A DNA stretch of 64,000 nt from a virus, in IMG/VR virus record IMGVR_UViG_3300023181_000003, positions 1-64,000 of that record, one strand, 5' to 3'. The translations under genes were made by a program, and so were the position numbers. A model generated the notes under the pieces. The model saw nothing but the letters and a program-made list of their open reading frames with translations, searched no databases and was not told the origin of the DNA. Within the stretch, counting starts at the first letter, position 1. Every line of letters starts with the position of its first letter. Shown here piece after piece: positions 828 to 12,336 of this stretch.

Positions 828-1073
828 TTATTTATATACGTGATTAATAACTAAACTATTAGCTTTCTCAAGTGGCATTAGCTCGCTTACACAGTCCAAC
901 GGATTACTCTTATGAACTGTAAAGTTCTCTGGTAGTTTATCGGGCACATATCTACAGTTCCAGAATATGTATTGTTCTGAGCCTGCTTCCACCCAATCAT
1001 AATAAATCCCTAAAGCCCTAACAACTTCTGTAGGCTCTTTATCTAGATATTTTACGTATAAATGTTTAATCAT
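828..1073 (-). CDS. hypothetical protein
   Basis: ORF track, 81 aa; start overlaps the stop of the upstream ligase gene by 4 nt (coupled). Confidence 0.6.
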   Translation of the reverse strand: MIKHLYVKYLDKEPTEVVRALGIYYDWVEAGSEQYIFWNCRYVPDKLPENFTVHKSNPLDCVSELMPLEKANSLVINHVYK

Positions 1074-2098
1074 TTAATATAATTAAGGAAATAGTTACGT
1101 GCTTTGGTAGACATTTTACTAGATACATCTTTTGTGGTTAGGCCACTTGCAACCAGAGTGTCTAGTTCTTCTTTAAGCACATCAGACATAACCCACTTGA
1201 TATAATCCCCTGTATGTTTAGCATCAATCTCAAGACCCATCTCTCCTAGCTTATCAATCCCTTGTTTTAAACGATTCTCTGTCACAGTCTTTTCTACAAA
1301 CTCATCAACAGAAGCTACTTTTTCTAGATCAATAGCCACTAGAGTCTTTACTTTTGAAACAGAATGCTTTTCACCTTTAGTTTTGAACATTACACCATCA
1401 ATATTAATCTTTGGTTCTGAACATTCAATAGCTGTCCATACAAGACCTTCACCAATTAGGGAGCCTTCTGGAGCATCTGGAATAAAGAAGCGAGCAACAG
1501 GGCAATCTTTTTCAACATGCTCAGTTAGCTCAATAAACTTGTTTTGTGATAGCTCAGGATTATTAAAATCAACCTCTACAACAAAAGATGGGTAACTTGA
1601 AATAAAACTTACGTTTTCCATAGGGAATCCAGATTTTAGGAAAGCAAAGAGCATCTCTACTGTGCTCAGCCAATCCGTAGAAGCTGCATCTTCAGAGATA
1701 CGTGCTTTAAAAATAGTAAAGTGTTTATCTACTTCGCTTACACCCACACCTTTTTGGATACCCTTACCAAACCACTCGCCATAGATTTGAATATTAGTTT
1801 TATTCTCAGGACGTGCCTCTTGAATAGCATCAAATAGTTTATGAAAGTATTTCTCATTAACTTTAACAAAGGCTGCAAAGCCCATATTATCACTCTCAGG
1901 TGTAATGATACGTTCACGAGATTGGGTATGAATGACCCCATTTTGGGTACGAACTACACCAGCATTAGTGCCATGAATCTTTACAGTTCCTTCAAACTTA
2001 ATTATAGGAAGTGGAACATCATGATATTTTGCACTGTCTTTAATGTGTTTAATAGTTTGTCGGAATTGCCCGATAGACGGGAATGCAATGTGCTTCAT
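1070..2098 (-). CDS. ATP-dependent RNA ligase, Rnl2-like
   Basis: 342 aa; nucleotidyltransferase motif I KIHGTN (as in T4 Rnl2), followed by YGEWFG, EGLVW and KTKGEKH, which resemble motifs III, IV and V. Confidence 0.75.
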   Translation of the reverse strand: MKHIAFPSIGQFRQTIKHIKDSAKYHDVPLPIIKFEGTVKIHGTNAGVVRTQNGVIHTQSRERIITPESDNMGFAAFVKVNEKYFHKLFDAIQEARPENKTNIQIYGEWFGKGIQKGVGVSEVDKHFTIFKARISEDAASTDWLSTVEMLFAFLKSGFPMENVSFISSYPSFVVEVDFNNPELSQNKFIELTEHVEKDCPVARFFIPDAPEGSLIGEGLVWTAIECSEPKINIDGVMFKTKGEKHSVSKVKTLVAIDLEKVASVDEFVEKTVTENRLKQGIDKLGEMGLEIDAKHTGDYIKWVMSDVLKEELDTLVASGLTTKDVSSKMSTKARNYFLNYIK

Positions 2099-3980: not shown

Positions 3981-4022
3981 ATTTGTGATGTGTGATTGTA
4001 GATCAAGTGTGAAGTCTTATGT

Positions 4023-4040
4023 GTTGTATTTTCACTACAC
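4023..4040. promoter_or_regulatory. degenerate copy (opposite orientation) of the operator-like motif found at 40861 and 41341
   Basis: Reverse complement reads GTAGTGAAAATACAACAC; its 12 3'-terminal nt (AAAATACAACAC) are identical to 41349-41360 plus flank. Lies upstream of the leftward gene 3780..3980. Confidence 0.3.
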
Positions 4041-4096
4041 TATGTAAAGATTTGTAAAGTAGTGTAAATTATTCAGAAAGTAAGGGTAAATCCTAA

Positions 4097-4124
4097 TTGA
4101 CAAAATAGTGTTTTATGTTACAAT
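4097..4124 (+). promoter_or_regulatory. sigma70-type promoter (TTGACA, 16-nt spacer, TGtTACAAT)
   Basis: TTGACA at 4097-4102, TG at 4116-4117, TACAAT at 4119-4124. Confidence 0.55.
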
Positions 4125-4128
4125 AACA

Positions 4129-4619
4129 ACATAAATGCGGAAACTGCATCTCTAACATGGAATACACACATTGTACCATGAAATTGGAAAGTTTCTCGGA
4201 TTGTGTTGCGGTAAGTATCTTCTTTAAAACAAGGTGTAGACAGTGGGCATGATTTTAAAAGCCGTACACGTCGTGGAGACGGCAAAGGGTTAAGTAAGAG
4301 GTTGGAAGCTAAGATCAATGATGCTTCTTTCTTTTTCAGTGAGCCTGAACACGTAGGGAAGGATTCTAATGGATTCTTTTGAGTCACTGAACTGTATCTG
4401 TATGCTTGATCAATCTGCATACATCTAGCCTAAAGCTAGACAAAGACGGCTCCGGGGGAAATATCCTTGGTTGGTTTTGATTATAGTCTTAGATTCTGTA
4501 TTTCACATTTAAATTATGTGTTTGCAGAGTCTAGGGTAAACTGTATCTTAAAAACCCACCAAGGGAAATTATAGGTAACTAATATAATGAATAAGTATTA
4601 ATAAGATAAGGAGTCAATA
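4129..4619 (+). ncRNA. long ORF-free leader / candidate structured RNA (element A)
   Basis: ~490 nt between the promoter and the ATG at 4620 with no + strand ORF >=60 aa. Contains GNRA-type and long hairpins (e.g. 4488-4525). Its 3' 117 nt share an ordered motif series with 41207-41296. Confidence 0.35.
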
Positions 4620-5093
4620 ATGCCAAGTGTCTTTGAATGGTGGCTAGGTAGGCCAGAAGAAATAGTTATACCAAAACCAGAGAGAAAGAAATATACTGAT
4701 TTAACAGGACAGAGATTCACTAAACTACTTGTCCTAAACAGAATAGAATCAGATAAACACGTATATAAATATTTATGTCAATGTGATTGTAGTAATACTA
4801 AAGTTGTACTAGCACAGAATCTTAAAACTGGTAAAACTAAATCATGCGGATGTTTAAGAGAGTCTAAAGAGTGTTATTCTAAAATTAAACTAACACAAGC
4901 CCTTGTGCTTGAAAGATTTAATACTGCTCATGGAAACTTATATGATTATTCACAAGTTGTTTACAAAGGTATAGCAAATAAAGTGAGTATTGTTTGTTAC
5001 AAACATGGTGTTTTTATGCAAAGACCTGATAATCATTGGAATGGTGGTGGTTGTCCACACTGTTATAATGAAAATATTAAGAATAGATCATAA
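4620..5093 (+). CDS. homing-endonuclease-related DNA-binding protein (no nuclease motif seen)
   Basis: 157 aa. N-terminal module LTGQRFTKL...CQCDC...SCGC matches the repeats of the HNH-AP2 protein (6832). C-terminal module HGNLYDYS...CYKHG...GCPHC matches the repeats of the 49960 protein. GGAG 8 nt before the ATG. Confidence 0.7.
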   Translation: MPSVFEWWLGRPEEIVIPKPERKKYTDLTGQRFTKLLVLNRIESDKHVYKYLCQCDCSNTKVVLAQNLKTGKTKSCGCLRESKECYSKIKLTQALVLERFNTAHGNLYDYSQVVYKGIANKVSIVCYKHGVFMQRPDNHWNGGGCPHCYNENIKNRS

Positions 5094-5120
5094 ATATTTA
5101 TATGTATCCTCTAGTTTAGT

Positions 5121-5149
5121 ATATATTTAGATAATTCTTGTGATACAAT
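5121..5149 (+). promoter_or_regulatory. extended -10 promoter-like element (TGaTACAAT)
   Basis: TG at 5141-5142, TACAAT at 5144-5149; no good -35. Confidence 0.4.
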
Positions 5150-5340
5150 ACTCTTATGTAAGTAAATAGTTACTTCGGAAATAAAGAATGCACTCAAGAT
5201 CGTTACATATATTGTTCCCTTGAGGCTCACATTGTTTTATTACAGTGTGTCGAATTAATGCAGGTAAGGTGTTTATGGATACACATTAGCCTTCCAAGCT
5301 TAAATAGATCGGCTCGGTACCGACTACCTGCTCCAAATAA

Positions 5341-5410
5341 GGATGAGTATACCGTTAAGGAGGCGGAACCGGCTGTAACTCGGTTGGATCGTTACCAAGA
5401 TCATCCACCA
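5341..5410 (+). ncRNA. tRNA-like element, anticodon-loop CU-GUA-AC (Tyr-type), reduced D/T arms, encoded ACCA end
   Basis: Hand fold: acceptor GGATGA(5341-46)/TCATCC(5401-06) then A-CCA; anticodon stem ACCGG/TCGGT with a 7-nt loop (GTA at 5375-77); D stem of only 3 bp; T arm of only 3 bp with a non-canonical loop. Confidence 0.3.
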
Positions 5411-5533
5411 AATAATTAAAGATCACCTACCTTAGTGACCGATAGACCCTCGGCGAGATAAGAAATTCTCAGGTGTCCGCATCAAGCAGCTTAAGCGAAA
5501 TGTAAGCCCTGTAATTGTAAGCAGGATAAATAT

Positions 5534-5611
5534 AGCGGTGTAGTTCAGTCCGGTAGAACAGGGGTCTCATACGCCTCATGTCATGGGTTCAAATCCCATC
5601 ATTCGCAACCA
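5534..5611 (+). tRNA. tRNA-Met-like (anticodon CAT) with non-closing acceptor stem; possibly pseudogene or part of a larger composite
   Basis: Canonical D arm (GTTC/AGTCCGGTA/GAAC), anticodon arm (GGGGT/CTCATAC/GCCTC) and T arm (ATGGG/TTCAAAT/CCCAT), ending ..CATTCGC-A-ACCA. The adjacent 5' strand AGCGGTG does not pair with CATTCGC. Confidence 0.45.
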
Positions 5612-5728
5612 AGCATCTGTGACCCACATGCAGCAATTGAAGCTGGCAATGTCGAACAGAGTTAACACGCACAACAATTACACAGCTTTCCTCCTTTCTA
5701 TGTGATAGTTGCTCTGTGCCCTAATAAT

Positions 5729-5812
5729 ACCGACTTCGCATAGAGGCCGATTGCACCTGTTTTGTAAGCAGGAATATAAACACCGTAAGTTCAAATCTTA
5801 CAGTCGGCACCA
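5729..5812 (+). tRNA. tRNA-like, anticodon TGT (Thr-type), encoded CCA, unusual 12-nt variable loop
   Basis: Hand fold: acceptor ACCGACT/AGTCGGC (A1-C72 mismatch); D arm GCAT/AGAGGCCGA/TTGC; anticodon arm CCTGT/TTTGTAA/GCAGG; T arm GTAAG/TTCAAAT/CTTAC; A-CCA at 5809-5812. Confidence 0.5.
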
Positions 5813-5832
5813 AATAAAGAAAAGAATATATC

Positions 5833-6177
5833 ATGGCAAATCCTAATTTAGTAAAAGGTGCCCCTGCTTTACCTGGGGCTGGTAGACCACCTGGGAGTGG
5901 TAACAAATCTAAAGCTTCTTCATTACGTAAAACTTTAAAGAAACTAAAGTCGTTTGAAGAGAAAGCTATCCAAAACATTGAAGACAGTGTTAATGGAAAA
6001 GAAGTAGATAAAGAGCAACTAGCATCCTCTAAGTGGCTTGTAACAAGTGTTGTAACAGTCCAGAAAGCTTGTTTAGCTGAAGAACAGTTTAAAGAATCCC
6101 TCAATGATGAGGATGAAGAGAAAGAACCTGTGGTTGAAAAACCTAAGTTTTCTCTTAATATTGTAAATAAGATTTAA
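5833..6177 (+). CDS. hypothetical protein; possible small terminase / DNA-binding protein
   Basis: ORF track, 114 aa; N-terminal GAGRPPGSGNK basic motif and acidic C-terminus; lies upstream of terL. The function call is a guess. Confidence 0.6.
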   Translation: MANPNLVKGAPALPGAGRPPGSGNKSKASSLRKTLKKLKSFEEKAIQNIEDSVNGKEVDKEQLASSKWLVTSVVTVQKACLAEEQFKESLNDEDEEKEPVVEKPKFSLNIVNKI

Positions 6178-6262
6178 TATAATGTGGAGAGACTAGCGAT
6201 TATGGCTAGGGAGTTGAGATGCATGGATAGTGTGGCAGGCTCAGCACGAATAAATCAATATT

Positions 6263-6297
6263 AGAGGGGTAGTAAAAACTACACCCTCTTTTATTTT
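6263..6297 (+). terminator. rho-independent terminator
   Basis: AGAGGGGTAGT-AAAA-ACTACACCCTCT (one bulge) followed by TTTTATTTT. Confidence 0.6.
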
Positions 6298-6313
6298 GTA
6301 GAAAAGGATTGTA

Positions 6314-6745
6314 ATGAGTAGTATTAAATATAGAGTGTCTGTTCAAGGCACAGACAGTTTAGGCCACAAGTGGTTAAGTAATGTAGTGGAAGTGGCTAAG
6401 CTAGGTGGTGAGGTCGATATGAATCAATTACGTACATCATTCCCTCATTCAGCTATTATGTTTCTTGAAACAGATCAAGAGATGGTTAGTAGGTCTGGTG
6501 TGACATTCACTGTTCTTGAACAGAGTTATAGCACAGAAGAAGAGTTAGATGCCTTGCCTATTGAAAAATGGCGTAAGCTTATGAAAGCTAATGGTTGTAA
6601 TTCTCGTAATAGACATGATGGAAATACACAGTATTTAGCTAAATTTTCTGTTGTAGAAAAAGTTGTTAAGCCAGTTAAGAATAAAGTAGAAACTGTGTTA
6701 CAATCTGATGTTGTAACAGAAGATGTAGCTGACGCTACAGAGTAA
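6314..6745 (+). CDS. hypothetical protein
   Basis: ORF track, 143 aa; AAAGGA 6 nt before the ATG. Confidence 0.65.
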   Translation: MSSIKYRVSVQGTDSLGHKWLSNVVEVAKLGGEVDMNQLRTSFPHSAIMFLETDQEMVSRSGVTFTVLEQSYSTEEELDALPIEKWRKLMKANGCNSRNRHDGNTQYLAKFSVVEKVVKPVKNKVETVLQSDVVTEDVADATE

Positions 6746-6831
6746 TAAATAACGTAGATGAACGGACGGCCATCCTTCACATTGCTCGCTCAGTGTGATA
6801 GTCTACACCAATTAAATATAGCGAGGTATGA

Positions 6832-7689
6832 ATGCGTAAGTATAAACTAAAAGATTTAGTGGGAACTAAATTAGGTTTTCTAGAAATAATTGCTAGAGAG
6901 CAAGAAGCAGAAAATGATACAGCTTACACAGCAAAATGGAGAGTCCGTTGTGCATGTGGTGAAGAAGTTATTTATGATCATAGAATTCTAACATCTAAGA
7001 AAAAGTCAAATTGTGGATGTGGTATGCGTAGTGAAAAATACCTCCCTGGTAAACAATTTTCTAAACTAACTATAGTTTCAAATGGACCACCCCATCCGAC
7101 AACACAATCTCCGAGGGTTTTCTGTAGATGTGAATGCGGAAATCCTGAACTAACCTTAGTGCAGAAGAATAACTTAATCTCTGGTAACACCACATCTTGT
7201 GGTTGTGTAGGTATTGCAAGTCGAATAACTCATGGTATGTCTAGTACACGAACTTACCAGATTTGGGAAGGTATGGTTCGTAGGTGTTCTGTTGGAAGAG
7301 AAGAAGAGTTTCCTTACCATGCAGGGAAAGGAATTCGAGTTTGTAAAGAGTGGAATCCGAAGTTAGGAGGGTCTTTTGAGAACTTCTATAAGGATATGGG
7401 AGAAGCTCCTGATAATCTTTCTATTGATCGTATTCACAATGATAATAACTATTTCAAAGAAAATTGCCGTTGGGCAACAAATAGTATCCAAGGCTATAAT
7501 AAAGGTTTAGACCCAAATAATAGTTCTGGTAAATCTGGTGTTAGTTTCTACAAACAGAATAATAAATGGTCTGCTGAAATACATGTAGACGGACAACATA
7601 TCCGACTAGGAATGTTTGAATATCTGGAGGATGCTATCAAAGCAAGAGAAAAAGCAGAGCTAGTCTACTATGGTTGGAATAAGCAATGA
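6832..7689 (+). CDS. HNH endonuclease with AP2-type DNA-binding domain (homing-endonuclease architecture)
   Basis: 285 aa. Two N-terminal Cys-rich repeats (..C.CGE...CGCG; ..CRCECG...SCGCV), HNH motif DRIHNDNNYFKENCRWATNSIQGYN, and C-terminal AP2-like GVSFYKQNNKWSAEIHVDGQHIRLGMFEYLEDAIKAREKAE. GAGG precedes the ATG. Confidence 0.8.
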   Translation: MRKYKLKDLVGTKLGFLEIIAREQEAENDTAYTAKWRVRCACGEEVIYDHRILTSKKKSNCGCGMRSEKYLPGKQFSKLTIVSNGPPHPTTQSPRVFCRCECGNPELTLVQKNNLISGNTTSCGCVGIASRITHGMSSTRTYQIWEGMVRRCSVGREEEFPYHAGKGIRVCKEWNPKLGGSFENFYKDMGEAPDNLSIDRIHNDNNYFKENCRWATNSIQGYNKGLDPNNSSGKSGVSFYKQNNKWSAEIHVDGQHIRLGMFEYLEDAIKAREKAELVYYGWNKQ

Positions 7690-7769
7690 GTGAACAGCAC
7701 TTCGGTCCTAGCAGCGAAAAACAGCAATGGTTTCTCTCTAGTGACGCTAATATTATTGTATATGGTGGT
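7686..7769 (+). CDS. terL: terminase large subunit, proposed exon 1 (28 codons)
   Basis: ATG overlaps the HNH stop (ATGA). MSEQHFGPSSEKQQWFLSSDANIIVYGG ends where TerL proteins run into the P-loop. Read through unspliced, the frame stops at 7812-7814. Confidence 0.55.
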
Positions 7770-7989
7770 AAACTTGTGCCTCCATTCAAAACTCTTTTAA
7801 ACGGGGAAACCTAAACAGATATTGCTGTAGGCAATCCCGTGCCAATGTTTAAAGACAGTGCGTAGAGGCCAGCCGCAAGGCGTAAGATTCAAGCGAATCT
7901 GAAACAGAGAGAATGTTTAAATACATTAAGAGATGGTCCGACACTCAGGGAAACTTGAGAGAGGTTTAGCGAACTTCATAACAGATACG
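7770..7989 (+). ncRNA. candidate self-splicing (group I-like) intron in terL; boundaries +/-3 nt
   Basis: 220 nt (220 mod 3 = 1, the frame offset between exon ORFs). Preceded by U and ends in G. GGUGGU/GCCUCC (7778-83) gives a P1-like pairing with terminal U-G. GNRA-capped hairpins at 7803-12, 7872-81 and 7944-59, plus hairpins at 7821-35, 7886-99 and 7912-27. Confidence 0.5.
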
Positions 7990-9393
7990 GCAATGGGTGG
8001 TGGCAAGTCCTATTGTGGCTTGTTACGCCATCTGAGATGGGTAGATGATCCTAATTATCGTGGATTCATTATCCGTAAAAACCAAACAACATTAGCTAAA
8101 TCTGGTGGTTTGTTTGATGAAGCTAAGACTCTTTACAGAGCATTTGAGCCTAGAGTAAAGATTAACAAGAAAGATATGAAGTTTGAGTTCCCTTCGGGGG
8201 CTGAGATTGCCATGTCCCATCTTGAAACAGACGATGACGCTGAGAAGTACCGTGGTTTACAAATCTCTGCGGCCATGATCGACGAGGCCACACAACTGAG
8301 CGAAGAAAATACTTTAGTTGTACTTTCACGTCTTAGGTCTAAAGCTAAGATGATTCCAAATCTTTTCCTAACGTGTAACCCGAATCCAGATTCTTATTTA
8401 CGTAAATGGATTGATTGGTGGATTATCCCTAAAGGTGCCACAAACGCAGGTCGTGCCAATCCAGACAGAGATGGAAAGATTCGTTGGTTCATTCGTCTAA
8501 ATAACGAGATGATATGGGCTGACACCAAGCAAGAATTACTAGAGCAGTATGCTTCTAGAGATTCTGATGGAAATATTCTTCCTGAAGATAGTGAATTCCA
8601 GTATATACGTCCTTTGTCATTGCAGTTTATATCTGCAACCATTTATGACAACCCTATACTTATTAAAACAAATCCAAACTACCTTGCCAACTTACTTGGA
8701 TTAAAACGAGTAAAGCAAGAGCGGGATTTATATGGTAATTGGGATATACGCGAAGACGCAGCAGGGTTCTGGAAAAGTGAATGGTTAGGAGAACCAGTAA
8801 AAGAATCTGATTATGATATTGTTTCATATTGCAGGGCATGGGATATCGCAGGTTCACTACCCTCAGAAGCAATGCCTAATCCAGACTGGACAGCCGGGGT
8901 ACTTATTGGAAAAAGCCGAGAAGGTATTTATCTAATTCTCGATGTAGTAAGATTCAGAGCAAGATTTGGCGAAGTAATGAAGAACATTATTTCTACTGCC
9001 TCTATCGATCCTGAAGGTACAAAAATTATATTACCACAAGAGCCAGGGCAAGCAGGTAAAGCAGCAGGGCAAATGATGATTCGTGAGTTAATTTCCGAAG
9101 GGTTTTATGCTCGTATGCGACCATCTAATAAATCTAAGCTTATACGTTTTCAACCCTTCGTGGCTGCATCAGAAGCAGGTATGGTGAGAATGGTACGAGG
9201 TCCTTGGAATGATGATTATACGTCTGAGTTAGTAGCCTTTGATGCAACACGTAACATTAAGGACGATCAAGTTGATGCCACATCAGACGCTTTTATCACA
9301 CTAGCTCAGAAAATTCAAATACCTAATATTCTATCTGGTATTCAATCAGCAAATTTATCAAGATCAAATCCACTCGTTGGATTAAATAACTAA
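7990..9393 (+). CDS. terL: terminase large subunit, main coding part (track ORF 7933..9393)
   Basis: Walker A AMGGGKS, Walker B-like AAMIDEAT, ~470 aa, immediately followed by the portal gene. The track ATG at 7933 has no usable SD and gives only 19 aa before the P-loop. Confidence 0.85.
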   Translation, partial: AMGGGKSYCGLLRHLRWVDDPNYRGFIIRKNQTTLAKSGGLFDEAKTLYRAFEPRVKINKKDMKFEFPSGAEIAMSHLETDDDAEKYRGLQISAAMIDEATQLSEENTLVVLSRLRSKAKMIPNLFLTCNPNPDSYLRKWIDWWIIPKGATNAGRANPDRDGKIRWFIRLNNEMIWADTKQELLEQYASRDSDGNILPEDSEFQYIRPLSLQFISATIYDNPILIKTNPNYLANLLGLKRVKQERDLYGNWDIREDAAGFWKSEWLGEPVKESDYDIVSYCRAWDIAGSLPSEAMPNPDWTAGVLIGKSREGIYLILDVVRFRARFGEVMKNIISTASIDPEGTKIILPQEPGQAGKAAGQMMIRELISEGFYARMRPSNKSKLIRFQPFVAASEAGMVRMVRGPWNDDYTSELVAFDATRNIKDDQVDATSDAFITLAQKIQIPNILSGIQSANLSRSNPLVGLNN

Positions 9394-9401
9394 GGAGAGA
9401 A

Positions 9402-10916
9402 ATGGAAGATTCACTTAAAAGTGATCAAACAGAAATTTCAAATCTCCAGCCTGGAACAAATCCAATACCATCTATCTCTCTTGGAGAAACAGGTTACAAC
9501 GGTCTAATTGTTCTTGGTGGAGATGTGTTTGAAGAGTGTCAACACGAATTGAGGTATCCTCAAGCAGTTGAAACATTCAAGAAAATGTCTAAAGATGGGG
9601 CTATTGCTCCTGCCTTAGAATTAGTTGAAATGTTAATATCTCGTGCTGATTGGTCTGTAAAAGTTCCAAAAGGATATGAAGAAGAATTAAAAGATAAAGC
9701 TATATTCATTGAACAGTGTGTATCTGATATGGATCACACATTCCAAGACTTTATCAAACAAGCTTCAAGCTTTAATAAATATGGATTCTCAGTTTGTGAG
9801 AAAGTCTTTCGTTATCGTCGTAAAGCCGATGGTTCAAGATTCGATGATGGATTGATTGGACTAAAGAAATTACCTCTACGCTCTCAAGATAGTATTGATT
9901 CTTGGAAATGGAGTAGTAAAGGCCGTGAGATTGCAGGGTTCTGGCAGAAAGTTAACATCATTAATAGTGAGACTTTCAATGGATGGGATTTTGTTCAATC
10001 AACAGGTACAGAGGATAATGGTTCAACATTAAAGTTTATCCCACGTAAAAAATATTTACACTTTAGAAACTCTCCAGAAAAAGATTCTCCTTATGGTAAA
10101 TCTCCTTTAGTTGGAGCATGGCAAGCGTGGCGCTACAAGCAGGCTTTTCAAGAAGCTGAAGCTATTGGTGTCTCACAAGATGCTAATGGATTTAAAGTCT
10201 TATACCTTCCTCCACAATACCTTGCACCTGACGCTTCAGAAGAAAATAAGGCAGTTTACGCAGAGTATAAAAAGATTATGGCAAACATTCAAGTTGCCAA
10301 ACAATCTGGATTAATTCTACCTTTGATCGTTGATGATCAAGGTAATAAGATGTTTGAGTTTGATATCAAGTCTATCACAGGCCAAAAGTCTTATGATACA
10401 GATGCAATTATTAAACGTTATACATCAGAGATTCTTTCCTCATTATTCGCTGATTTCTTAGCATTAGGTAGTAATGGGGGTGGCTCATTCAGCTTAGCTG
10501 AGTCTAAACTTTCTGTTATTGAAATGGCTATTGAATCAAGATTAAATGAAATCAAAGCTCAATTAAACCACGATCTGATTCCACAACTATTCGCTTTAAA
10601 TGGATGGTCTACCGAAGTTCTTCCTTATTTCACATATGGAAAAATTGGTAGCGTAAGTCTAGATGAAGTTGGTAAGTTTGTACAACGTGTTGCAGCAGTG
10701 GGGATGTTACCAAAAGATGCTCATGTAATTAACTGGTTACTAGCTCAAGCAGATATTCCATATCGTGTTGATGAAAATATGTCTGTAGAAGAATTAAGTA
10801 AAATTCTTACTCCCTTAGAAACTGGCGCTGCTGAGGGTATGGCCTCTGGTCTTCCCTCAGGCACTGGAAATTCTACAGGCAATAACTCTGCAACCAACAG
10901 CGACAACGCAGCATGA
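9402..10916 (+). CDS. portal protein
   Basis: 504 aa, directly downstream of terL and upstream of the prohead protease; call rests on position and size. Confidence 0.75.
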   Translation: MEDSLKSDQTEISNLQPGTNPIPSISLGETGYNGLIVLGGDVFEECQHELRYPQAVETFKKMSKDGAIAPALELVEMLISRADWSVKVPKGYEEELKDKAIFIEQCVSDMDHTFQDFIKQASSFNKYGFSVCEKVFRYRRKADGSRFDDGLIGLKKLPLRSQDSIDSWKWSSKGREIAGFWQKVNIINSETFNGWDFVQSTGTEDNGSTLKFIPRKKYLHFRNSPEKDSPYGKSPLVGAWQAWRYKQAFQEAEAIGVSQDANGFKVLYLPPQYLAPDASEENKAVYAEYKKIMANIQVAKQSGLILPLIVDDQGNKMFEFDIKSITGQKSYDTDAIIKRYTSEILSSLFADFLALGSNGGGSFSLAESKLSVIEMAIESRLNEIKAQLNHDLIPQLFALNGWSTEVLPYFTYGKIGSVSLDEVGKFVQRVAAVGMLPKDAHVINWLLAQADIPYRVDENMSVEELSKILTPLETGAAEGMASGLPSGTGNSTGNNSATNSDNAA

Positions 10917-10944: not shown

Positions 10945-12336
10945 ATGTCTCATGAGTTAGTTCGATTAAAGAATAAACTATATAACACTCCCCACCTAAT
11001 CAATACAACATCATTTGAAACAATTCTAGAGTATCTTAACACAAGAAGTCTAGGTGGTTTTGTTCCAAAGCCTTTGCTTATTGAAGATGATGATTTTGTT
11101 CCTCCATCACAAGACGATGAAGATAATCAAAATTATGATGCTGATCTAAAGACAGGATTTATCCATATTGAAGGCCCACTTACATATAAGCCTGTAACCA
11201 TTATGGGGTTTGATTGTGGTGGGGCAAATTACCAGACCATTAAATCAGACTTTATTGATATGGTTGATGCTGGTGTAAAAACTATTGTATTAGCAATAGA
11301 CAGTGGTGGAGGTGAGGCATTCCAATGCTTCCCTACAGCACAATATATGCGTGACCTTGCAGATGAAAATAGTGTAAAGATTATTACATATGTAGACGGT
11401 ATGGCCGCTTCTGCTGCTTACGCACTAGGCTCCATTGCTGATGAATTGATTATGGCCCCATCATCTGAGGTAGGATCAATTGGTGTTTTAGTTCGTCTAT
11501 TTAATGATTCTAAAGCATTAGAGATGAACGGATATGAAAGAACATTTGTTAAAGCTGGTGGAGAAAAGATTCCATATGCTGAAGATGGTTCTTTCAGAAA
11601 AGAATTCATAGCTGACATTCAAGAAAAAGTGGATGTTATGTATGGAGAGTTTGTTGATCATGTTGCGCAAATGCGTGGATTGTCAGCAGACGCAGTTAGG
11701 GCCACTGAAGCTAAAACCTTTCTCCCTGAGAAGGCAATGCAACTTGGACTAGCTGAAAGTGTGATGACTTTAGAGGAACTACACGATTACTTAGTCACTT
11801 CAGCCCAATCTCAAGGAGAACAGATGTTCAATAAACGAACACCTAAATTTAAACTAGATAAACAAGAGGAAAATCTTGACATGACCCAAATTGCAGAACT
11901 GCAATCTCAGCTACAAGCACTTACAGGACAACTAGAAGGCGTAAACGCTGAACTTGTTAATTCTGCTTCTGCTCTAGCTCTCGCCCAAACTACTCTAACT
12001 GAAAAAGAACTAGCTCTAACTGAAGCACTCTCACAAGTTGCCTCTCTAGAAGCTGCACAACTAGATGCTAAAGCATCAGCCCGTAAACAATCCTTGGCTG
12101 CTGTCCTAGCGGCTGATAAAGTGGAAGCTACTGCTACTGCTCTATCTGGCCTAGATGACACTGCTTTTGATACTGTCCTAGCAAGCTACAAAGCACAAGC
12201 TGAAGTTAACAAAGCTTCAGAACTAATGCAAGAACTTGGTGGCGAAGGTGCTGTTGTTGATACAACTAAAAAAGTTGAAAGTAAATCAACAACTTCTAAA
12301 GCACTTGAACAAAAACTTGGCAAAGTAAGCCAGTAA
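10945..12336 (+). CDS. prohead serine protease (S49/ClpP-like) fused to scaffold-like coiled coil
   Basis: 463 aa; IDSGGGE and GMAASAAYALGS motifs of S49-type peptidases; Ala/Leu/Gln-rich C-terminal third (QSQLQALTGQLEG...). Confidence 0.75.
   Translation: MSHELVRLKNKLYNTPHLINTTSFETILEYLNTRSLGGFVPKPLLIEDDDFVPPSQDDEDNQNYDADLKTGFIHIEGPLTYKPVTIMGFDCGGANYQTIKSDFIDMVDAGVKTIVLAIDSGGGEAFQCFPTAQYMRDLADENSVKIITYVDGMAASAAYALGSIADELIMAPSSEVGSIGVLVRLFNDSKALEMNGYERTFVKAGGEKIPYAEDGSFRKEFIADIQEKVDVMYGEFVDHVAQMRGLSADAVRATEAKTFLPEKAMQLGLAESVMTLEELHDYLVTSAQSQGEQMFNKRTPKFKLDKQEENLDMTQIAELQSQLQALTGQLEGVNAELVNSASALALAQTTLTEKELALTEALSQVASLEAAQLDAKASARKQSLAAVLAADKVEATATALSGLDDTAFDTVLASYKAQAEVNKASELMQELGGEGAVVDTTKKVESKSTTSKALEQKLGKVSQ

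Follow-up and report, generated by a model that had tools for sequence, protein, structure and literature searches.

The tract at positions 5094–5832 of the window, by which we mean the whole 64,000-nt stretch of viral DNA analysed, is bordered upstream by an ORF related to HNH homing endonucleases and downstream by a gene that probably encodes a small terminase (TerS) or packaging accessory protein (Table 1). The match of the upstream ORF covers only part of the phrog_374 profile and is not accompanied by a Pfam match. The downstream gene precedes TerL (7933–9393) and the portal gene (9402–10916), and its product is 41% identical to that of L004 3014–3412; its homologues P0002–P0006 are always found after a tRNA array, and one homologue carries PF18932/DUF5681. 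An RNA ligase gene lies at 1070–2098. Between the flanking genes, the + strand carries four tRNA-type genes in tandem and in the same orientation: Gly-UCC, a truncated Tyr-GUA, Met/Ile2-CAU and Thr-UGU. The trailer that follows the encoded CCA is AAUAA in three of the units and AGCAU in the other, and all four tRNAs have non-standard features. About 40% of the tract (5094–5259, 5411–5507 and 5612–5728) falls outside any tRNA model, and the spacers between the tRNA units hold conserved hairpins.

Table 1 Features of the tract and of the two genes that border it, in window coordinates
Feature	Position	Strand	Basis and remarks
157-aa ORF, HNH homing endonuclease-related, short, possibly truncated	4620..5093	+	PHROG phrog_374 'HNH endonuclease', E 2e-18
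Candidate extended -10 element TGaTACAAT	5141..5149	+	Read from sequence; good -35 absent
Leader 5' of tRNA-Gly: two hairpins, then GTCGAAT	5193..5256	+	Homologous L022 leader
tRNA-Gly(UCC), T-loop CUCGGUA (C54, G58), encoded CCA	5260..5335	+	ARAGORN
tRNA-Tyr(GUA) deletion derivative	5341..5410	+	Homology to phage tRNA-Tyr family only
Invariant 26-nt box TAAAGATCACCTACCTTAGTGACCGA	5417..5442	+	Identical in L144/L158
Spacer with small hairpins CCGA/UCGG (5439–5453) and GAGA/TCTC (5456–5471)	5443..5507	+	Relatives' alignment
Fossil of tRNA-Thr anticodon arm and start of variable loop (CCTGTAATTGTAAGCAGGATAAATATA), 8-nt loop	5508..5534	+	Local alignment, direct repeat D4
tRNA, anticodon CAU (elongator Met or lysidine-Ile2), aberrant acceptor stem	5534..5611	+	Rfam 52.3 bits (5535–5607)
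Irregular hairpin TCTGTGA...ATGTCGAACAGA	5616..5660	+	Conserved in L019, L020
CU-loop hairpin, two-part stem, loop (G)CUUUCCUCCUUUCU(A) at 5685–5700	5669..5719	+	Covarying relatives
tRNA-Thr(UGU), 12-nt variable loop, A1.C72 mismatch, encoded CCA	5729..5812	+	ARAGORN; Rfam 48.4 bits
114-aa gene, probably small terminase or packaging accessory protein	5833..6177	+	Position, homologues

Consistent with an earlier sequence-only reading of this DNA, the interval 5093–5833 contains no + strand ORF of at least 60 aa (its largest have 53, 40 and 45 aa), the ORF at 5721..6104 on the - strand is antisense to 5833..6177, G+C content reaches 43–46% at 5200–5900 vs 28–38% in the flanks, the stems named at 5160–5175, 5193–5224, 5228–5249 and 5445–5477 are present in the sequence, and no + strand terminator-like site separates the tract from 5833. 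The description of the tract as hairpin-dense holds for the presence of stems but is weak by energy alone, with z = -2.25 for the whole tract and from -0.2 to -2.0 for its parts; the real support for structure comes from comparison with relatives and not from fold energy. The same reading had listed three tRNA-like modules, two of them with an encoded CCA. Their coordinates proved real, but the tRNA-Gly gene had been overlooked and CCA ends are encoded in all four units. Two of the three modules (5534–5611 and 5729–5812) are tRNAs by Rfam, whereas 5341–5410 was called by neither ARAGORN nor Rfam, the latter without a match at E = 10. ARAGORN and Rfam each recovered two of the four units, with tRNA-Thr alone common to both.

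The tRNA-Gly gene scores 26.9 bits (5260–5332), just below the Rfam RF00005 gathering cutoff of 29 bits, and is 84–88% identical at the nucleotide level to the tRNA-Gly genes of T4-like Aeromonas phages. It shares with the tRNA-Gly(UCC) of the phages compared (44RR2.8t, Aes012, phiAS4, ZPAH1, AS-sw and AP1) the same cloverleaf, a U.U mismatch in the anticodon stem and an A49.C65 mismatch, and four compensatory stem pairs among relatives support the cloverleaf. Besides its stems, the Gly family covaries at T-loop positions 54 and 58 (U-A, A-U or C-G): these are C/G in the window, U/A in 44RR2.8t, Aes012 and phiAS4, and A/U in ZPAH1, AS-sw, AP1 and the related contig L022. The C54-G58 T-arm is also found in the 3' fragments of Gly genes at the starts of L019 and L020. 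The reverse Hoogsteen pair U54-A58 is otherwise nearly universal in tRNAs; in the window, tRNA-Gly has C54/G58 and the Tyr derivative A54/U58, and the Met and Thr T-loops are standard (UUCAAAU). An A54-U58 T-loop is seen repeatedly in phage genes of the Gly, Tyr and Asn-like families, the last of which show eight compensatory cloverleaf pairs, and literature searches found no description of phage tRNAs with A54-U58 or C54-G58.

The unit that neither tool called aligns with full-length 85–89-nt tRNA-Tyr genes of seven IMG/VR contigs (L165–L171), in three of which ARAGORN calls tRNA-Tyr. Common to these genes and the window copy are the acceptor stem GGATGAG/ATCATCC, the D-loop GTTAAGGAGG, the anticodon loop CTGTAA, the T-loop AUCGUUA and the ACCA end. 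The window copy keeps its acceptor stem, D arm and anticodon arm (loop CUGUAAC), and has lost the variable arm and part of the T-stem, with 16–19 nt missing; unlike the full-length genes it is no longer a class II tRNA. A four-arm cloverleaf cannot apply to it since the variable arm is deleted, and two of its U residues could pair in either the anticodon stem or the T-stem. Its 3' part is 87% identical to positions 21–59 of the related contig L018. The Tyr pattern occurs in seven viral contigs and in none of the GTDB genomes, and an exact scan for the anticodon arm of 5341–5410 gave no match. We also considered whether the T-arm region of 5341–5410 or the 26-nt box, which may resemble the 16S rRNA 3' end (GGAUCACCUCCUUA), could derive from it. 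As a source of the T-arm region it was rejected: the matching CGGTTGGATC arises only where the deletion joins its two sides, and the full-length Tyr genes lack it.

The CAU tRNA is homologous to annotated tRNA-Met genes of phages, and ARAGORN detects it at a relaxed threshold only. Its cloverleaf was compared with distant homologues only, among which the Met relatives of phages Boevelstad and CR3 have U1-A72 and a 7-bp acceptor stem; the window and L016 genes instead begin with A and carry one additional nucleotide in the 3' strand of the stem, which therefore ends in A.A and contains a bulged U. Bacterial initiator tRNA-fMet has a C1.A72 mismatch and, at the foot of the anticodon stem, three consecutive G-C pairs (29-41, 30-40 and 31-39). 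The anticodon stem here, GGGGU/GCCUC, includes a G.U and a U.G pair, and the acceptor stem ends in A.A instead of C.A, so the gene is of elongator Met or lysidine-Ile2 type.

The tRNA-Thr gene (Rfam match 5729–5809) belongs to a type with a long variable loop that is also found in L020, where the first pair is G1-C72, and in L021; five compensatory pairs among relatives support its cloverleaf. The A1.C72 mismatch disrupts position 1-72, an identity element for ThrRS. ACA accounts for 54% of the phage Thr codons. A partial copy of this gene precedes the CAU tRNA, its local alignment with 5756–5778 scoring 27 against a best of 23 in 500 shuffles. This fossil anticodon arm at 5508–5534 and the deletion derivative at 5341–5410 support the view that parts of the array have decayed.

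The segments outside the tRNA genes carry conserved elements of their own. In the leader, the hairpins at 5193–5224 (CTCAAG/CTTGAG) and 5228–5249 (CACATTG/CAGTGTG) have counterparts in the L022 leader, before its Gly-like gene, where the stems differ in sequence yet pair (CCTAGG/CCTAGG and CACACTTG/CGAGTGTG) within the same GGCTCACA...GTGTGTCGAAT frame. The 26-nt box occurs once in the window and recurs unchanged in L144/L158, a phage contig of 83 kb without other nucleotide similarity to the window, in which it lies ~205 nt upstream of a DUF5681 small-terminase-like ORF. It is also found in L016, L022 and L021 (with a 1-nt insertion in the last) and is missing from L015 and L018–L020 within the available DNA. 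RNAalifold found no consensus structure for the box region, and a 15-mer from the box gave mostly chance matches in IMG/VR except for L158, the same contig as L144. The box is absent from the GTDB genomes, which speaks against an origin in the 16S rRNA 3' end. The CCGA/UCGG hairpin overlaps the end of the box and becomes CCGU/ACGG in L021, a single compensatory change; 5419–5479 is 98% identical to L022 2082–2142, and the rest of the spacer at 5443–5507 is common to L016 only. A scan with the spacer motif TGCTCTGTGCCCTAAT returned a single chance match, in a coding region of L017. Further downstream, the irregular hairpin at 5616–5660 shows a compensatory change (CAGC/GCTG vs CAAC/GTTG). In L020 a tRNA-Phe gene follows directly after GTCGAACAGAATAA, a slot that is empty in the window and in L019, and the hairpin marks an empty cassette site.

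The hairpin with a pyrimidine loop at 5669–5719 has the same shape with different stem sequences in all eight close relatives. Its flank-shuffle z is -3.6 in the window and ranges from -1.9 to -8.6 in the relatives, its G.U pairs fit the + strand, and the window holds one copy. In L004 and L005 a version with a 13-bp stem precedes the TerS-like gene by 190 nt, and some members of the lineage that carry the hairpin also carry the invariant box. With its freely covarying stems and its 14–15-nt CUUUCCU(U)CCUUUCU loop, fixed in the packaging-operon leader of this lineage, the motif could be new. We infer that the hairpin and the box are part of the region in front of the TerS-like gene and not of any tRNA, and our guess is that they serve as a protein-binding or processing signal on the transcript. 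Three other roles were considered. An anti-Shine-Dalgarno mimic lacks support, as most relatives have CCUUCC rather than CCUCC; a terminator is disfavoured by the lack of a U-tract after the hairpin in the window; and a minus-strand ORF using the purine-rich complement of the loop was rejected, as a TAA directly follows the GTG.

Eight related phage contigs have arrays at the same place, directly 5' of a homologous small-terminase-like gene, and their tRNA content differs cassette by cassette, with tRNA-Thr(UGU) as the last gene in all eight. Same-position arrays ending in this gene (L015, L016 and L018–L022) share modules in mosaic fashion: L016 is identical to the window over 5421–5612 and then carries a different cassette, and L015 is wholly divergent upstream of 5806. 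HNH-family ORFs flank the window array, a GIY-YIG/SegE-like ORF lies inside the L019 array, and HNH ORFs lie inside those of L020 and L021. Distant relatives identified by TerL also have tRNAs upstream of terL; the TerL-based IMG/VR relatives (L001–L014) have 37–79% amino acid identity and no nucleotide similarity to the tract, and were unusable for alignment. Compared with GenBank phages by megablast, the first 20 kb of the window gave tRNA-sized matches only and no close isolate, and an IMG/VR search with the back-translated 114-aa protein gave no match. The four genes and the arrays of the relatives together indicate that the tract is very probably a mosaic phage tRNA gene array in the leader of a packaging operon. 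The array itself is an ordinary phage feature and a matter of routine annotation.

Like the clusters of T4 (segB), T5, Felix O1 and Pakpunavirus, the array is made up of closely packed tRNA genes that share a strand and encode their CCA ends, varies in content among relatives and has homing-endonuclease genes in or beside it. It differs from them in having four units only, each of them non-standard, in its position directly before a TerS-like gene, and in spacers that carry the CU-loop hairpin and the box, which are unmatched to anything described. With HNH-family ORFs flanking the array and clear cassette mosaicism, the region may be of the T4 segB type; T4 SegB provides an experimental precedent for homing-endonuclease-driven inheritance of a tRNA region (PMC2330249).

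If the array is expressed as its arrangement suggests, transcription would run rightward, either starting at the extended -10 element or entering from upstream by read-through. The element is present as the sequence-only reading had proposed, but it goes unlisted by a consensus promoter scan owing to its poor -35, and a strong promoter-like site at 4097–4124 offers read-through as an alternative. One precursor RNA would then extend from the array into the TerS-like gene. RNase P would cut the tRNA 5' ends, an RNase E-type enzyme would cut within the A/U-rich trailers, and exonucleases would then trim the 3' ends back to the encoded CCA and so release the tRNAs; these steps are those of the established E. 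coli pathway, assumed here. The released tRNAs would read heavily used phage codons such as ACA, replace host tRNAs lost during infection, or both. Recombination, with the homing endonucleases beside and within the arrays as its probable drivers, would add, remove and exchange cassettes, and the truncated Tyr gene, the tRNA-Thr half-copy and the empty Phe slot would be debris of this turnover. Some or all of the four units may be inactive, given their deviations from the tRNA pattern.

The sequence-only reading had left open whether the tract is one RNA, a decayed tRNA cluster or a processed polycistron, and the evidence supports a mix of the last two. GOLLD and ROOL RNAs often lie beside tRNA genes in phage genomes, and a single large structured RNA of that type, with the tRNA-like modules as its domains, would account for a tract that is free of ORFs and internal terminators, rich in G+C and stems, and somewhat more stable than its shuffles. 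The phage setting and the tRNA neighbours are likewise shared with GOLLD and ROOL. Such an RNA is nevertheless extremely unlikely here: only tRNA families reach E = 10 in the tract, matches to GOLLD, ROOL, tmRNA, RNase P and introns being absent even at that threshold, and the GOLLD and ROOL models give no gathering-score match in the 64-kb window and none at E = 10 in 4900–6400. ARAGORN found no tmRNA gene, nor did Rfam, and group I intron RF00028 has no match in the window. The tract is moreover not conserved as a unit, its relatives sharing individual modules only, and its predicted long-range pairs lack comparative support. Group I introns do occur near terL in L006, L010 and L012, outside their tRNA arrays. 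The opposite extreme, a wholly decayed array in which four pseudogenes left by cassette turnover now form only a 5' UTR, is improbable. Each of the units is defective in some way (Gly under the Rfam cutoff, Tyr truncated, Met bulged, Thr with A1.C72 where L020 has G1-C72), and fossil pieces and an empty slot are present. Yet Gly, Met and Thr have intact stems and anticodon loops, none of the units has lost its CCA end, the bulged Met variant is the same in L016 except for one D-loop base, and three phages maintain the long-variable-loop type of Thr, with compensatory changes. The recurrence of the C54-G58 T-arm in the Gly fragments of L019 and L020 argues for selection, not drift.

Two further explanations concern what the array, or the tract, is for. 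The tRNAs could be altered to escape host tRNA nucleases or modification enzymes, or act as decoys soaking up nucleases, a role to which we assign a rather low probability. The recurrent A54-U58 T-loop of phage Gly, Tyr and Asn-like genes, the restriction of the Tyr pattern to viral contigs and the RNA ligase gene are in keeping with it. Phage tRNAs are documented to escape anticodon nucleases by loop changes, or to overcome a tRNA-Tyr-depleting retron (PMC10264068, PMC11555353), but these published cases concern anticodon loops or tRNA abundance, not T-loops. An anti-defence role would in any case overlap with the array explanation, not replace it. We know of no defence system that reads T-loop positions 54 and 58. 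It is possible, if still doubtful, that the essential function of the tract is cis-regulation of the packaging operon by the CU-loop hairpin and the box, with the tRNA genes as inserted passengers. In L144 the box lies upstream of the TerS-like gene with the nearest tRNA gene ~2.6 kb further upstream, in L004 the hairpin lies upstream of the TerS-like gene with no called tRNA between, its two called tRNAs being downstream of that gene, and the hairpin is found in all close relatives whatever their tRNA content. The box, however, is not universal, being missing from the available DNA of four relatives, and the sequence indicates no mechanism. A consistent complement of the loop is lacking around the gene's start codon.

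It is tentatively suggested that two features could be new, a phage-restricted class of tRNAs covarying at 54/58 (Gly, Tyr and Asn-like, in unrelated phages) and a cis-acting CU-loop motif. Should the 54-58 covariation prove functional, A-U and C-G would be permitted in natural tRNAs at a tertiary pair that is generally regarded as fixed; host T-loop enzymes or tRNA-directed defences might recognise such tRNAs differently, and the covariation may tie to the idea that host tRNA-targeting defences shape phage tRNAs. The CU-loop hairpin and the box are candidate control or processing signals of the packaging operon. In practice, half of the units here are overlooked or scored too low by standard tRNA finders, as are tRNAs of the relatives, so the tRNA content of phage metagenomes is probably under-counted. 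The lineage consists of uncultured phages of roughly 80–95 kb, and the window TerL is 43–44% identical to that of Pseudomonas phages UAVern and PAK_P5.

The tract between the stop at 5093 and the terS-like gene belongs to a well-known kind, clusters of phage tRNA genes that homing endonucleases have probably shaped, and departs from known examples in that all four of its units are non-standard. The sequence-only reading had described an ORF-free, hairpin-dense stretch with three tRNA-like modules, and its account of composition holds: there is no + strand ORF of at least 60 aa between 5093 and 5833, the sole long ORF (5721..6104, - strand) is antisense to the gene at 5833..6177, G+C content is 43–46% over 5200-5900 versus 28–38% in both flanks, the stems and TGaTACAAT element that it named are present, and a consensus scan of the + strand found no terminator before 5833. 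Folding energy alone is unimpressive (z = -2.25 for 5150-5832; between -0.2 and -2.0 for seven sub-segments), so that the term hairpin-dense, though the stems exist, needs comparative support. The proposed modules at 5534-5611 and 5729-5812 were recovered by the tools, whereas neither ARAGORN nor Rfam called 5341-5410. Each tool loses one gene that the other detects: Rfam matched 5535-5607 (52.3 bits, anticodon CAU) and 5729-5809 (48.4 bits) and scored the Gly gene at 26.9 bits, slightly below the 29-bit cutoff, while ARAGORN called tRNA-Gly(UCC) and tRNA-Thr(UGU) and saw the CAU gene at a relaxed threshold only. No non-tRNA Rfam family, GOLLD, ROOL, tmRNA and group I introns included, matched the tract even at E = 10, and ARAGORN found no tmRNA. 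The earlier observation stands in part; a tRNA cluster is the correct reading, and a large RNA of the GOLLD or ROOL type is not.

Features of the tRNA array and its surroundings
Feature	Position	Strand	Evidence or description
RNA ligase gene	1070-2098	-	Pfam PF09414; PHROG phrog_548, E 8.5e-65
Sigma-70-like promoter match	4097-4124	+	TTGACA, 16 nt, TACAAT, with TG; 11/12 positions
HNH-family ORF	4620-5093	+	phrog_374, HNH homing-endonuclease family
tRNA-Gly(UCC)	5260-5335	+	ARAGORN
Tyr derivative	5341-5410	+	Phage tRNA-Tyr(GUA) family, T-loop AUCGUUA
CAU tRNA	5534-5611	+	Rfam; homologues in phages Boevelstad and CR3
tRNA-Thr(UGU)	5729-5812	+	ARAGORN, Rfam
HNH-family ORF	6832-7689	+	phrog_374, HNH homing-endonuclease family
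TerL	7933-9393		Large terminase
Portal	9402-10916		Mu-type
Protease	10945-12336		S49

The 114-aa product of 5833-6177, looked up both exactly and by homology, led to seven short viral contigs (L015, L016 and L018–L022). A tRNA array lies directly 5' of the homologous gene in 7/7 and always ends with tRNA-Thr(UGU), its content being otherwise variable (two to seven called genes). Resemblance to the window is mosaic: L016 is identical over 5421-5612 except for two bases, then has a tRNA-Asn at a point where the window sequence differs, the common spacer 5661-5716 and a different tRNA-Thr; L015 matches from 5806 onward only; and L020 has a tRNA-Phe between GTCGAACAGAATAA and ACGCACATCAT, a slot that is empty in the window and L019. 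Homing-endonuclease ORFs lie inside the arrays of L019 (GIY-YIG/SegE-like), L020 and L021 (both HNH). Homing-endonuclease genes within the relatives' arrays, together with swapped tRNA content, resemble what is known of SegB and the tRNA region of T4 (PMC2330249). In the window, the two phrog_374 ORFs flank the array and terS-like gene, the upstream one being short and only a partial profile match. By eye, L022 also contains an uncalled Pro(UGG)-like gene (about 1480-1560) with a good acceptor stem and standard T-arm, and L019 an uncalled Leu-like sequence with an insertion (about 1030-1110).

The Gly gene shares 84–88% identity with tRNA-Gly of T4-like Aeromonas phages, and its stems show four compensatory pairs in an alignment with six Aeromonas phage genes and the Gly-like gene of L022. 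Full-length phage tRNA-Tyr(GUA) copies (85–89 nt) occur in seven IMG/VR contigs, three of them called tRNA-Tyr by ARAGORN; the pattern is absent from GTDB genomes. The window's copy lacks 16–19 nt, essentially the long variable arm, leaving the T-stem directly next to the anticodon stem, with two U residues for which both compete; judged by its sequence, it is probably a recent deletion derivative and inactive. Relative to its two phage homologues, the CAU tRNA has A rather than U at position 1 and one additional base in the 3' acceptor strand, which leaves the stem with a bulged U and A.A at its end, a variant also found in L016; it lacks initiator features and is of the Met or lysidine-Ile2 type. 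The tRNA-Thr has a 12-nt variable loop common to the window, L020 and L021, compensatory changes at five pairs, and a terminal A1.C72 versus G1-C72 in L020. ACA accounts for 54% of Thr codons in the window's ORFs, which fits the presence of tRNA-Thr(UGU) in every array. All four units have an encoded CCA end, directly followed by AAUAA in three of them (5336-5340, 5411-5415, 5813-5817), and similar A/U-rich trailers on most tRNAs of the relatives are consistent with a shared endonucleolytic processing signal.

T-loop positions 54/58 of the Gly genes covary, being U/A in phages 44RR2.8t, Aes012 and phiAS4, A/U in ZPAH1, AS-sw, AP1 and L022, and C/G in the window and the 3' Gly fragments that start L019 and L020, with no single-substitution intermediate among the genes compared. 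The loop AUCGUUA is shared by the phage Tyr family, Asn-like elements, the four A/U Gly genes just named and the Gly gene of L002, with a close variant, AUCGUGG, in L001. A54 and U58 also occur in tRNA-Gly(UCC) of other phage lineages, namely contigs L001 (4825-4899), L002 (4825-4899), L052 and L168 (6223-6297), whose loops are AUCGUGG, AUCGUUA, AUCGUAA and AUCGUGC. This census is biased by the way loci were collected and gives no frequency estimate. In vivo selection at 54/58 reportedly recovered U-A, G-A and G-G, not A-U or C-G. A literature search found no description of 54-58 covariation, which to our knowledge is undescribed. Asn(GUU)-type tRNAs with an AUCGUUA loop and encoded GCCA end, undetected by ARAGORN and Rfam, were seen in L015 (205-283), L018 (576-654) and L020 (971-1048), in two distinct versions eight compensatory pairs apart.

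The spacers provide a further departure from known tRNA clusters, as they hold two conserved elements for which no match was found, a CU-loop hairpin (5669-5719) and a 26-nt box (5417-5442). Stem sequences of the hairpin differ in each relative with pairing always kept, the loop is CUUUCCUCCUUUCU or CUUUCCUUCCUUUCU, and all eight sequences adopt the shape when folded alone (z against shuffled flanks -3.6 in the window, -1.9 to -8.6 in relatives). It occurs once in the window, and viral contigs L004/L005 carry a 13-bp version that precedes the homologous gene by 190 nt, no tRNA being called in the interval. The box, also single-copy, recurs in L016, L021 and L022 and is missing from L015 and L018–L020 within the DNA available; an exact copy stands in the 83-kb phage contig L144/L158, which is otherwise dissimilar, some 205 nt 5' of a small-terminase-like ORF with DUF5681. 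The box yielded no consensus fold and was found in none of 185,579 GTDB genomes. Our guess is that both elements work in the leader of the packaging operon, at the level of transcript or DNA. As an array the tract is ordinary; what merits follow-up is the CU-loop hairpin and the T-loop covariation. Elsewhere in the spacers, two hairpins and a GTCGAAT motif 5' of the Gly gene (5193-5256) recur in L022 with stems that differ yet pair, 5508-5534 repeats the anticodon arm of tRNA-Thr in degenerate form (alignment score 27, above 500/500 shuffles), and the irregular hairpin of 5616-5660 is conserved and shows one compensatory change. In L145 and L146, two related viral contigs of about 160 kb, the box 15-mer CTACCTTAGTGACCG directly precedes a strong terminator-like hairpin, an occurrence that may reflect chance or a related element.

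The window derives from a tailed phage; among cultured phages, its TerL is closest to those of Pseudomonas phages UAVern and PAK_P5, at just 43–44% identity, and isolates show nucleotide similarity in tRNA-sized pieces only. The promoter match, the strongest within 4000-8000 and oriented rightward to the array, could drive its read-through transcription. By analogy with established bacterial tRNA biology, the array would be transcribed as one precursor, 5' ends would be cut by RNase P, trailers would undergo RNase E-type cuts and then exonucleolytic trimming, and the tRNAs would be used in phage translation. In phage T4, RNA ligase repairs tRNAs cleaved by host anticodon nucleases, and the window's RNA ligase gene could be connected to the array. 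Group I introns (RF00028, 61–66 bits), of which the window has none, lie in or beside the large-terminase genes of three related viral contigs, L006 (7249-7502), L010 (5727-5972) and L012 (8126-8462).
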